From assembly GCF_054482595.1 (NCBI RefSeq), contig NZ_CM137008.1: a DNA stretch of 64,000 bases, one strand, 5' to 3'. The position numbers were made by a program, and so were the translations under genes. Below are positions 7,277 through 7,852 of the stretch, piece after piece. The notes under the pieces are model-generated. The model saw only the letters and a list, made by a program, of their open reading frames with translations, had not been told where the DNA came from and searched no databases. How positions within the stretch are numbered: the stretch's first letter is position 1; every line of letters starts with the position of its first letter.

Positions 7277-7852
7277 ATGGAATACTTTGATATGCATAAA
7301 ATGTCGGTAAATCTGTGGCGAAACGCTGCCGGTGAAACGCGAGAAATTTGCACTTTCCCACCGGCAAAACGTGATTTTTACTGGCGTGCCAGCATTGCAT
7401 CCATCGCGGCGAATGGGGAGTTTTCTTTGTTTCCCGGTATGGAAAGGATAGTGACGTTGCTGGAAGGCGGCGAGATGTTCCTTGAAAGCGCAGACCGCTT
7501 TAACCATACCTTAAAACCGTTACAGCCTTTTGCCTTTGCGGCGGACCAGGTGGTAAAAGCGAAACTGACGGCAGGGCAGATGTCGATGGATTTCAATATT
7601 ATGACGCGCCTGGATGTCTGTAAGGCGAAAGTCAGAATTGCCGAACGTACGTTTACTACCTTTGGCTCACGCGGCGGGGTGGTGTTTGTGATTAACGGGG
7701 CGTGGCAACTGGGCGACAAACTGCTCACTACCGACCAGGGCGCGTGCTGGTTCGATGGCAGGCACACCCTGCGGCTTTTACAACCGCAAGGTAAACTGTT
7801 GTTCAGTGAAATCAACTGGCTCGCTGGTCATTCGCCGGATCAAGTTCAGTAA
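7277..7852 (+). CDS. ves: HutD-family protein Ves
   Basis: ORF 7214..7852; start moved to ATG 7277 (MEYFDMHK) to match the 191-aa Ves. Confidence 0.85.

Follow-up and report, generated by a model that had tools for sequence, protein, structure and literature searches.

Convergent genes whose coding regions share their 3′ ends through a 3′ extension following loss of a stop codon are a described class (Palleja, Harrington & Bork 2008, PMC2478687; convergent prokaryotic overlapping pairs are treated by Rogozin et al. 2002, as cited there). Such extensions account for about 7% of well-characterised overlaps, and many of the long (>60 bp) convergent overlaps found in databases were judged to be 3′-extension misannotations. 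The ves/cho pair of Escherichia coli resembles this class: both genes are real, they lie on opposite strands and have their 3′ ends in common, the C-terminal extensions are weakly conserved, and lengths shift between relatives through gain or loss of stop codons. Nothing essential differs. Its 41 bp exceed the very short overlaps that form the majority and stay below the >60-bp class examined in that work, and conservation reaches across more genera than for most of the long convergent overlaps considered there.

Convergent excludons (Lasa/Cossart; PMC12288877) are likewise adjacent convergent genes with overlapping transcripts, and cho-ves itself has been catalogued as one. Table 1 of the ExcludonFinder study (NAR 2025, PMC12288877) places it among 165 convergent excludons of MG1655. 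According to the available text of that study, excludons were called from overlapping RNA-seq coverage and had to be present in at least 50% of 58 MG1655 transcriptomes. Validation was global (predicted terminators, p19 dsRNA capture, single-cell data and synteny); the p19 and short-RNA data are also treated globally, and the available text gives no test specific to cho-ves. Excludon pairs in general are described there as showing higher synteny than other neighbouring pairs. In classic excludons it is long 3′ UTRs that overlap, and the two genes were shown to be expressed reciprocally, whereas in ves/cho the coding regions themselves overlap and the transcript overlap is known, from that text, through coverage.

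A third comparison is with convergent pairs that terminate at a bidirectional stem-loop or by head-on collision of RNA polymerases, the latter being a described termination mechanism for such pairs (SEnd-seq; Wang et al., bioRxiv 10.1101/2022.10.23.513370). Like these, ves/cho has to terminate transcripts arriving from both sides within very few bases. Unlike the bidirectional-terminator pairs, the E. coli junction is without an intergenic stem-loop flanked by A/U tracts; palindromes of this kind were found only in four spacer-bearing loci (e.g. Pseudescherichia vulneris) and in genomes without cho.

The ves/cho overlap is already known, both from standard annotation and from the published catalogue of overlapping transcripts; a literature search under ves/cho and ydjQ/ydjR returned no relevant match. 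The arrangement is ordinary and its significance goes little beyond bookkeeping.

The ves/cho junction

The window, that is, the whole stretch of 64,000 nucleotides analysed (contig NZ_CM137008.1), is a segment of an E. coli chromosome with the gene order astB-astE-spy-ves-cho-nadE-osmE-chb. RefSeq coordinates were converted from an identical E. coli chromosome, NZ_CP019359, and the features of the junction are collected in Table 1. The preliminary description had proposed a 41-bp tail-to-tail overlap of ves (+) and cho (−), and the list of open reading frames, the stop codons in the raw sequence and the RefSeq annotation agree on it exactly to the base. An earlier stop in either gene would remove the overlap; none was found in the ves or the cho frame, and the overlap stands.

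Table 1. Features of the ves/cho junction (window positions) and related loci (own handles and positions)
Feature	Position	Strand	Remarks
FliA (sigma-28) promoter of ves	7197..7224	+	AACGTAAATCACCCGAGTTGCCGATAAC; published FliA ChIP-seq table (PMC4183435), exact window match
ves CDS	7277..7852	+	191 aa; environmental stress-induced protein Ves, HutD family; RefSeq annotation and ORF list
ves stop codon	7850-7852	+	TAA
cho CDS	7812..8699	-	295 aa, GTG start; excinuclease Cho, UvrC N-terminal homologue; RefSeq and ORF list
cho stop codon	7812-7814	-	TCA on + strand, TGA on - strand
ves/cho CDS overlap, tail to tail	7812..7852		41 bp; ves codons 179-191 and stop, cho codons 283-295 and stop
LexA-box-like palindrome	8715..8730	-	CTGGTTATCTATCCAG; 16-31 bp upstream of cho GTG; pattern match
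Stem-loop in cho-strand RNA	7765..7793	-	12-bp stem with 3 G-U pairs, 5-nt loop, without U tract
Nearest terminator-like site, ves direction	8373-8390	+
Nearest terminator-like site, cho direction	7108-7094	-
Conserved end of Ves	7808-7831	+	E178-I179-x-W181-L-P/A-G-H185; alignment of 16 Ves proteins
Last invariant Cho column	7842-7844	-	L286; alignment of 24 Cho proteins
Variable Cho tail	7815-7841	-	residues 287-295, DPANDQRAS
Palindromic spacers between ves and cho stops	L052 1331-1378; L044 3058-3087; L043; L064
Loci without cho	L007 1811-1886; L009, L014, L015, L018, L019, L021 3076-3155; L046; L063; L077; L084 3576-3640		E. albertii, six Citrobacter, an Enterobacter sp., two Trabulsiella, an assembly labelled Salmonella Saintpaul

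When 1.7 kb centred on the junction served as query, 5425 of 5426 complete E. coli genomes matched, some of them with 100% identity, and both genes were annotated across the junction in all of the 40 E. coli records sampled down the match ranking; virtually all complete E. coli genomes thus carry the overlap. The identical 41-bp overlap was present in CFT073, a distant E. coli lineage, and it recurs in independent assemblies of E. coli XH990, other Escherichia species and Citrobacter. ves and cho are a convergent overlapping pair: they lie on opposite strands, share 3′ coding bases, are both real genes and are reproducible across genomes.

Both products are well supported by homology. Ves matched the NCBIfam equivalog NF008488 (environmental stress-induced protein) over its full length with 426 bits, the Pfam HutD match spans residues 10-175, and 251 homologues were found. 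Cho matched the excinuclease Cho equivalog NF007833 with 580 bits over residues 1-287 and also the GIY-YIG N-terminal domain of UvrC (structure 1ycz). In a PDB sequence search the nearest solved relatives of Ves were the HutD proteins 5fcc and 1yll. These alignments stop short of the Ves C-terminus, and that with 1ycz stops short of the C-terminus of Cho. AlphaFold2 models, made from shallow alignments, had a mean pLDDT of 62.6 for Cho and 48.5 for Ves, too poor to judge disorder of the tails.

Transcription across the junction

The ves promoter is assigned to FliA (sigma-28) in a published ChIP-seq table (PMC4183435), and this promoter drives the ves transcript antisense into cho. A LexA-box-like palindrome lies upstream of cho on the opposite strand; the pattern on its own is weak, with seven matches in the window against 2.3 expected. 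We take this palindrome to be the cho SOS box, marking the promoter region of the transcript antisense into ves; cho is an SOS-regulated gene controlled by LexA.

The preliminary description had held that the junction leaves no room for independent terminators and that each transcript necessarily reads antisense into the other gene. Overlapping stops indeed leave zero spacer, and any terminators must sit inside the partner CDS. A consensus scan of both strands found no intrinsic terminator in the roughly 500 nt that follow each stop. Folding the RNA of either strand gave no hairpin with a U-tract at the junction, and the folds did not surpass those of shuffled sequence (z = −1.2 and −1.3). There is no bidirectional intrinsic terminator of the stem-loop type with A/T tracts between the stops, the intergenic space being zero. 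The nearest terminator-like sites lie hundreds of bases away, inside the partner gene or past it. Full-length mRNAs of the two genes share at least 41 complementary nucleotides, and overlap of the cho and ves transcripts is documented in the available text of PMC12288877. Since no intrinsic terminator is nearby, the real transcript overlap is probably longer than 41 nt. The obligatory antisense overlap of the transcripts was correctly recognised in the preliminary description; its further suggestion, a possible regulatory coupling of LexA-controlled cho and FliA-controlled ves, agrees less well with the comparative data (varying overlap length, hairpin-bearing spacers in some genera, repeated loss of cho) than a neutral by-product does.

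RNA from the cho strand can form a stem-loop that starts 19 nt past the cho stop, within the ves CDS. Its folding energy in Escherichia is −17 to −21 kcal/mol; it is weaker in E. albertii, which lacks cho, and absent in Citrobacter. As a conserved terminator it was rejected, being missing in Citrobacter despite the same 41-bp overlap. It could be a stabiliser of the 3′ end or a chance structure.

Published Term-seq tables (Adams 2021 supplements) contain no 3′ end at the ves/cho junction, which is probably due to poor expression of both genes. They do contain the 3′ end of the spy terminator (about 7154), which precedes ves by 123 nt, and, on the minus strand, a Rho-dependent 3′ end at about 8675 (MG1655 1823539), 24 nt into the cho ORF, as well as a second bicyclomycin-sensitive site at about 8430 (MG1655 1823784), deeper in cho. 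These positions suggest that cho transcripts terminate early when the gene is not induced.

Two observations concern the flanking spacers. The spy-ves spacer (7094-7160) combines the strong spy terminator with the terminator-like hairpin on the opposite strand, and cho transcripts that read through the whole of ves would meet their first canonical terminator in the latter. An Rfam scan of positions 6000-10500 gave no match at the junction; it detected an ES036 (CssrF) sRNA match at 8807-8849 on the minus strand (42.9 bits, gathering score 37.6), located on the cho strand between nadE and cho, upstream of the LexA-like box.

Conservation and length of the overlap

Alignments of the two proteins located their conserved ends at the junction (Table 1). 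These ends do not overlap one another, and the variable tail of each protein sits over the conserved end of the other. The Cho tail differs between genera in both sequence and length, while Cho I283 and L286, both inside the overlap, are conserved. Ves proteins range from 181 to 200 aa among the 16 aligned; the tail S186-Q191 (SPDQVQ) is confined in this set to Escherichia and Citrobacter-type Ves, and the 185-aa Enterobacter-type proteins are without a C-terminal extension.

The codons are arranged so that ves positions 1, 2 and 3 stand opposite cho positions 1, 3 and 2. The cho stop (TCA on the plus strand) is made of the last two bases of ves codon Ile179, an invariant residue, and the first A of the Asn180 codon; ATC-AAC or ATT-AAC in ves supplies TCA or TTA as the cho stop, and the homologous site ends cho in Enterobacter too. 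For this antisense frame, in which first codon positions face each other, long ORFs of the window have 0.052 stops per codon, and the probability of 13 stop-free antisense codons is 0.50. The length of the overlap is therefore explicable by chance alone.

Nucleotide diversity was compared by codon position in 14 related sequences, the group with 41-bp overlap; the sample is small, with about 14 sites per class, which limits its weight for a neutral reading. Shared sites that are third positions of ves and second positions of cho had a diversity of 0.266, against 0.070 for those that are second positions of ves and third positions of cho. In the non-overlapping parts the values for positions 3 and 2 were 0.383 and 0.037 in ves, and 0.462 and 0.088 in cho. 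Because diversity by position follows the ves pattern, the overlapped bases evolve as ves codons, with the Cho tail as a passenger.

For comparison among Enterobacteriaceae, a scan with the Ves alignment, one genome per species, yielded 80 loci, of which 60, including the E. coli reference (L001), carry both genes. The ends overlap in 52 of these 60 loci, and the extremes are a gap of 48 bp and an overlap of 45 bp. The commonest lengths are 23 bp (17 loci; Enterobacter, Lelliottia and others) and 41 bp (14 loci; Escherichia and Citrobacter). The other overlaps are of 4 bp (six loci), 7 bp and 32 bp (five each), 15 bp (four) and 45 bp (one). Gaps of 2-3 bp separate the stops in four loci, and spacers of 28-48 bp with a GC-rich palindrome in four more, namely P. 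vulneris and three related assemblies. The palindrome in these spacers is perfect and resembles either a bidirectional terminator or an insertion of REP type.

About 11 of the sampled loci lack cho, and the convergent neighbour of ves there is nadE (Table 1). The ves-nadE spacer in these loci is 25-80 bp long and carries a palindromic, terminator-like hairpin, and Ves, including its tail, is intact. The pattern suggests that the SOS excinuclease cho was lost repeatedly. As cho was lost with ves left intact, the link between them would be dispensable and ves independent of cho in cis, and its loss in several lineages argues against an essential link.

Origin of the overlap

ves and cho are unrelated, independently regulated genes, and their overlap is genuine and annotated. 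We consider it likely that the overlap is a neutral by-product of tight packing and of stop-codon drift in an old convergent pair, and not a device. The two genes would have stood tail to tail, essentially without a spacer, since early Enterobacteriaceae, each frame running beyond its conserved core to the first stop on the neighbour's antisense strand. In cho this would have added nine unconstrained codons after ...YEITEL286, ended by the stop that arises from the ves Ile179-Asn180 codons, while the six-residue SPDQVQ extension of ves would pass over the last conserved cho codons. Transcription probably ends through Rho, acting on antisense RNA that is not translated, through polymerases meeting head-on, or through both. 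With both promoters weak or repressed (LexA for cho, FliA dependence for ves), interference would probably be small. Three observations speak against a neutral origin: the abutting arrangement has been retained across many genera; RNA-seq coverage led to the classification of cho-ves as an excludon, and excludon pairs in general are higher in synteny in the available text of PMC12288877; and the stem-loop kept in Escherichia just downstream of the cho stop might be functional. The first two leave some probability for selection on an antisense interaction.

A functional reading is a convergent excludon in which the overlap and the absence of a terminator are maintained for mutual repression, through polymerase collision and/or cleavage of the duplex by RNase III, so that expression of cho (induced by SOS) and of ves (induced by sigma-28 or cold) would be mutually exclusive. 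Its listing among the MG1655 excludons, the junction without an intrinsic terminator, the different regulons (FliA promoter for ves, LexA-like box for cho), the widespread tail-to-tail arrangement and the known termination of convergent pairs by head-on collision are all consistent with it. We nevertheless find it doubtful. The coverage test of ExcludonFinder is passed by construction by any pair with overlapping CDSs when both genes are expressed, and the literature, as far as the available text goes, gives no reciprocal-expression test specific to ves/cho. Moreover, the length of the overlap is not conserved and four loci have a hairpin spacer between the genes; cho has been lost or has decayed in about 11 sampled loci with no visible change in ves; and with both genes weakly expressed, collisions should be rare. 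A more elaborate form, in which the terminator-less overlap is a selected switch joining the SOS response to a member of the sigma-28 regulon, is quite unlikely in our view. On that view ves would be silenced in cis once cho is released from LexA, or basal expression of cho would be lowered by ves transcription from the FliA promoter, in either case by colliding polymerases and cleavage of duplex RNA, and the Escherichia-specific stem-loop would set a stable cho 3′ end inside ves. True dual coding, with both tails functionally required and the 41 bp under purifying selection from two sides, could account for the conserved Cho I283 and L286 and for the SPxxVQ tail of Ves, which Escherichia and Citrobacter retain even in species without cho. 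It seems very unlikely, as the Cho tail changes freely and varies in length between genera, the Ves extension is absent from the Enterobacter-type proteins, the conserved ends of the two proteins do not coincide, and third positions of cho are frozen while its second positions vary. Misannotation is common among long convergent overlaps in databases (PMC2478687), and an artefact, one gene ending earlier because of an error in sequencing, a frameshift or a wrongly called reading frame, might be suspected here as well. This was rejected, and we assign it almost no probability: stops and frames recur across many independent genomes, with identical stops and 41 bp in independent assemblies of E. 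coli, other Escherichia and Citrobacter; the frames are fixed by strong homology of both proteins to their equivalogs; and 41 bp falls below the 60-bp range in which artefacts dominated.

The comparative picture illustrates neatly, in textbook fashion, the way in which convergent overlaps arise and drift, with disposable tails lying over the constrained ends of the partner, stops drifting between genera and cho lost repeatedly. It also warns against inferring regulation from every overlap of coding sequences. If reciprocal regulation were true, ves/cho would be one more excludon, joining the DNA-damage regulon to a motility/stress regulon, and of modest interest.

Two further loci have lost part of this region. 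In a metagenome-assembled genome (L040) cho is represented by fragments only. In E. coli strain 1410D004 (L082 2578-3709) a deletion spans the junction, and ves and cho are both annotated as C-terminally truncated pseudogenes; a single deletion event disabled the two overlapping genes.
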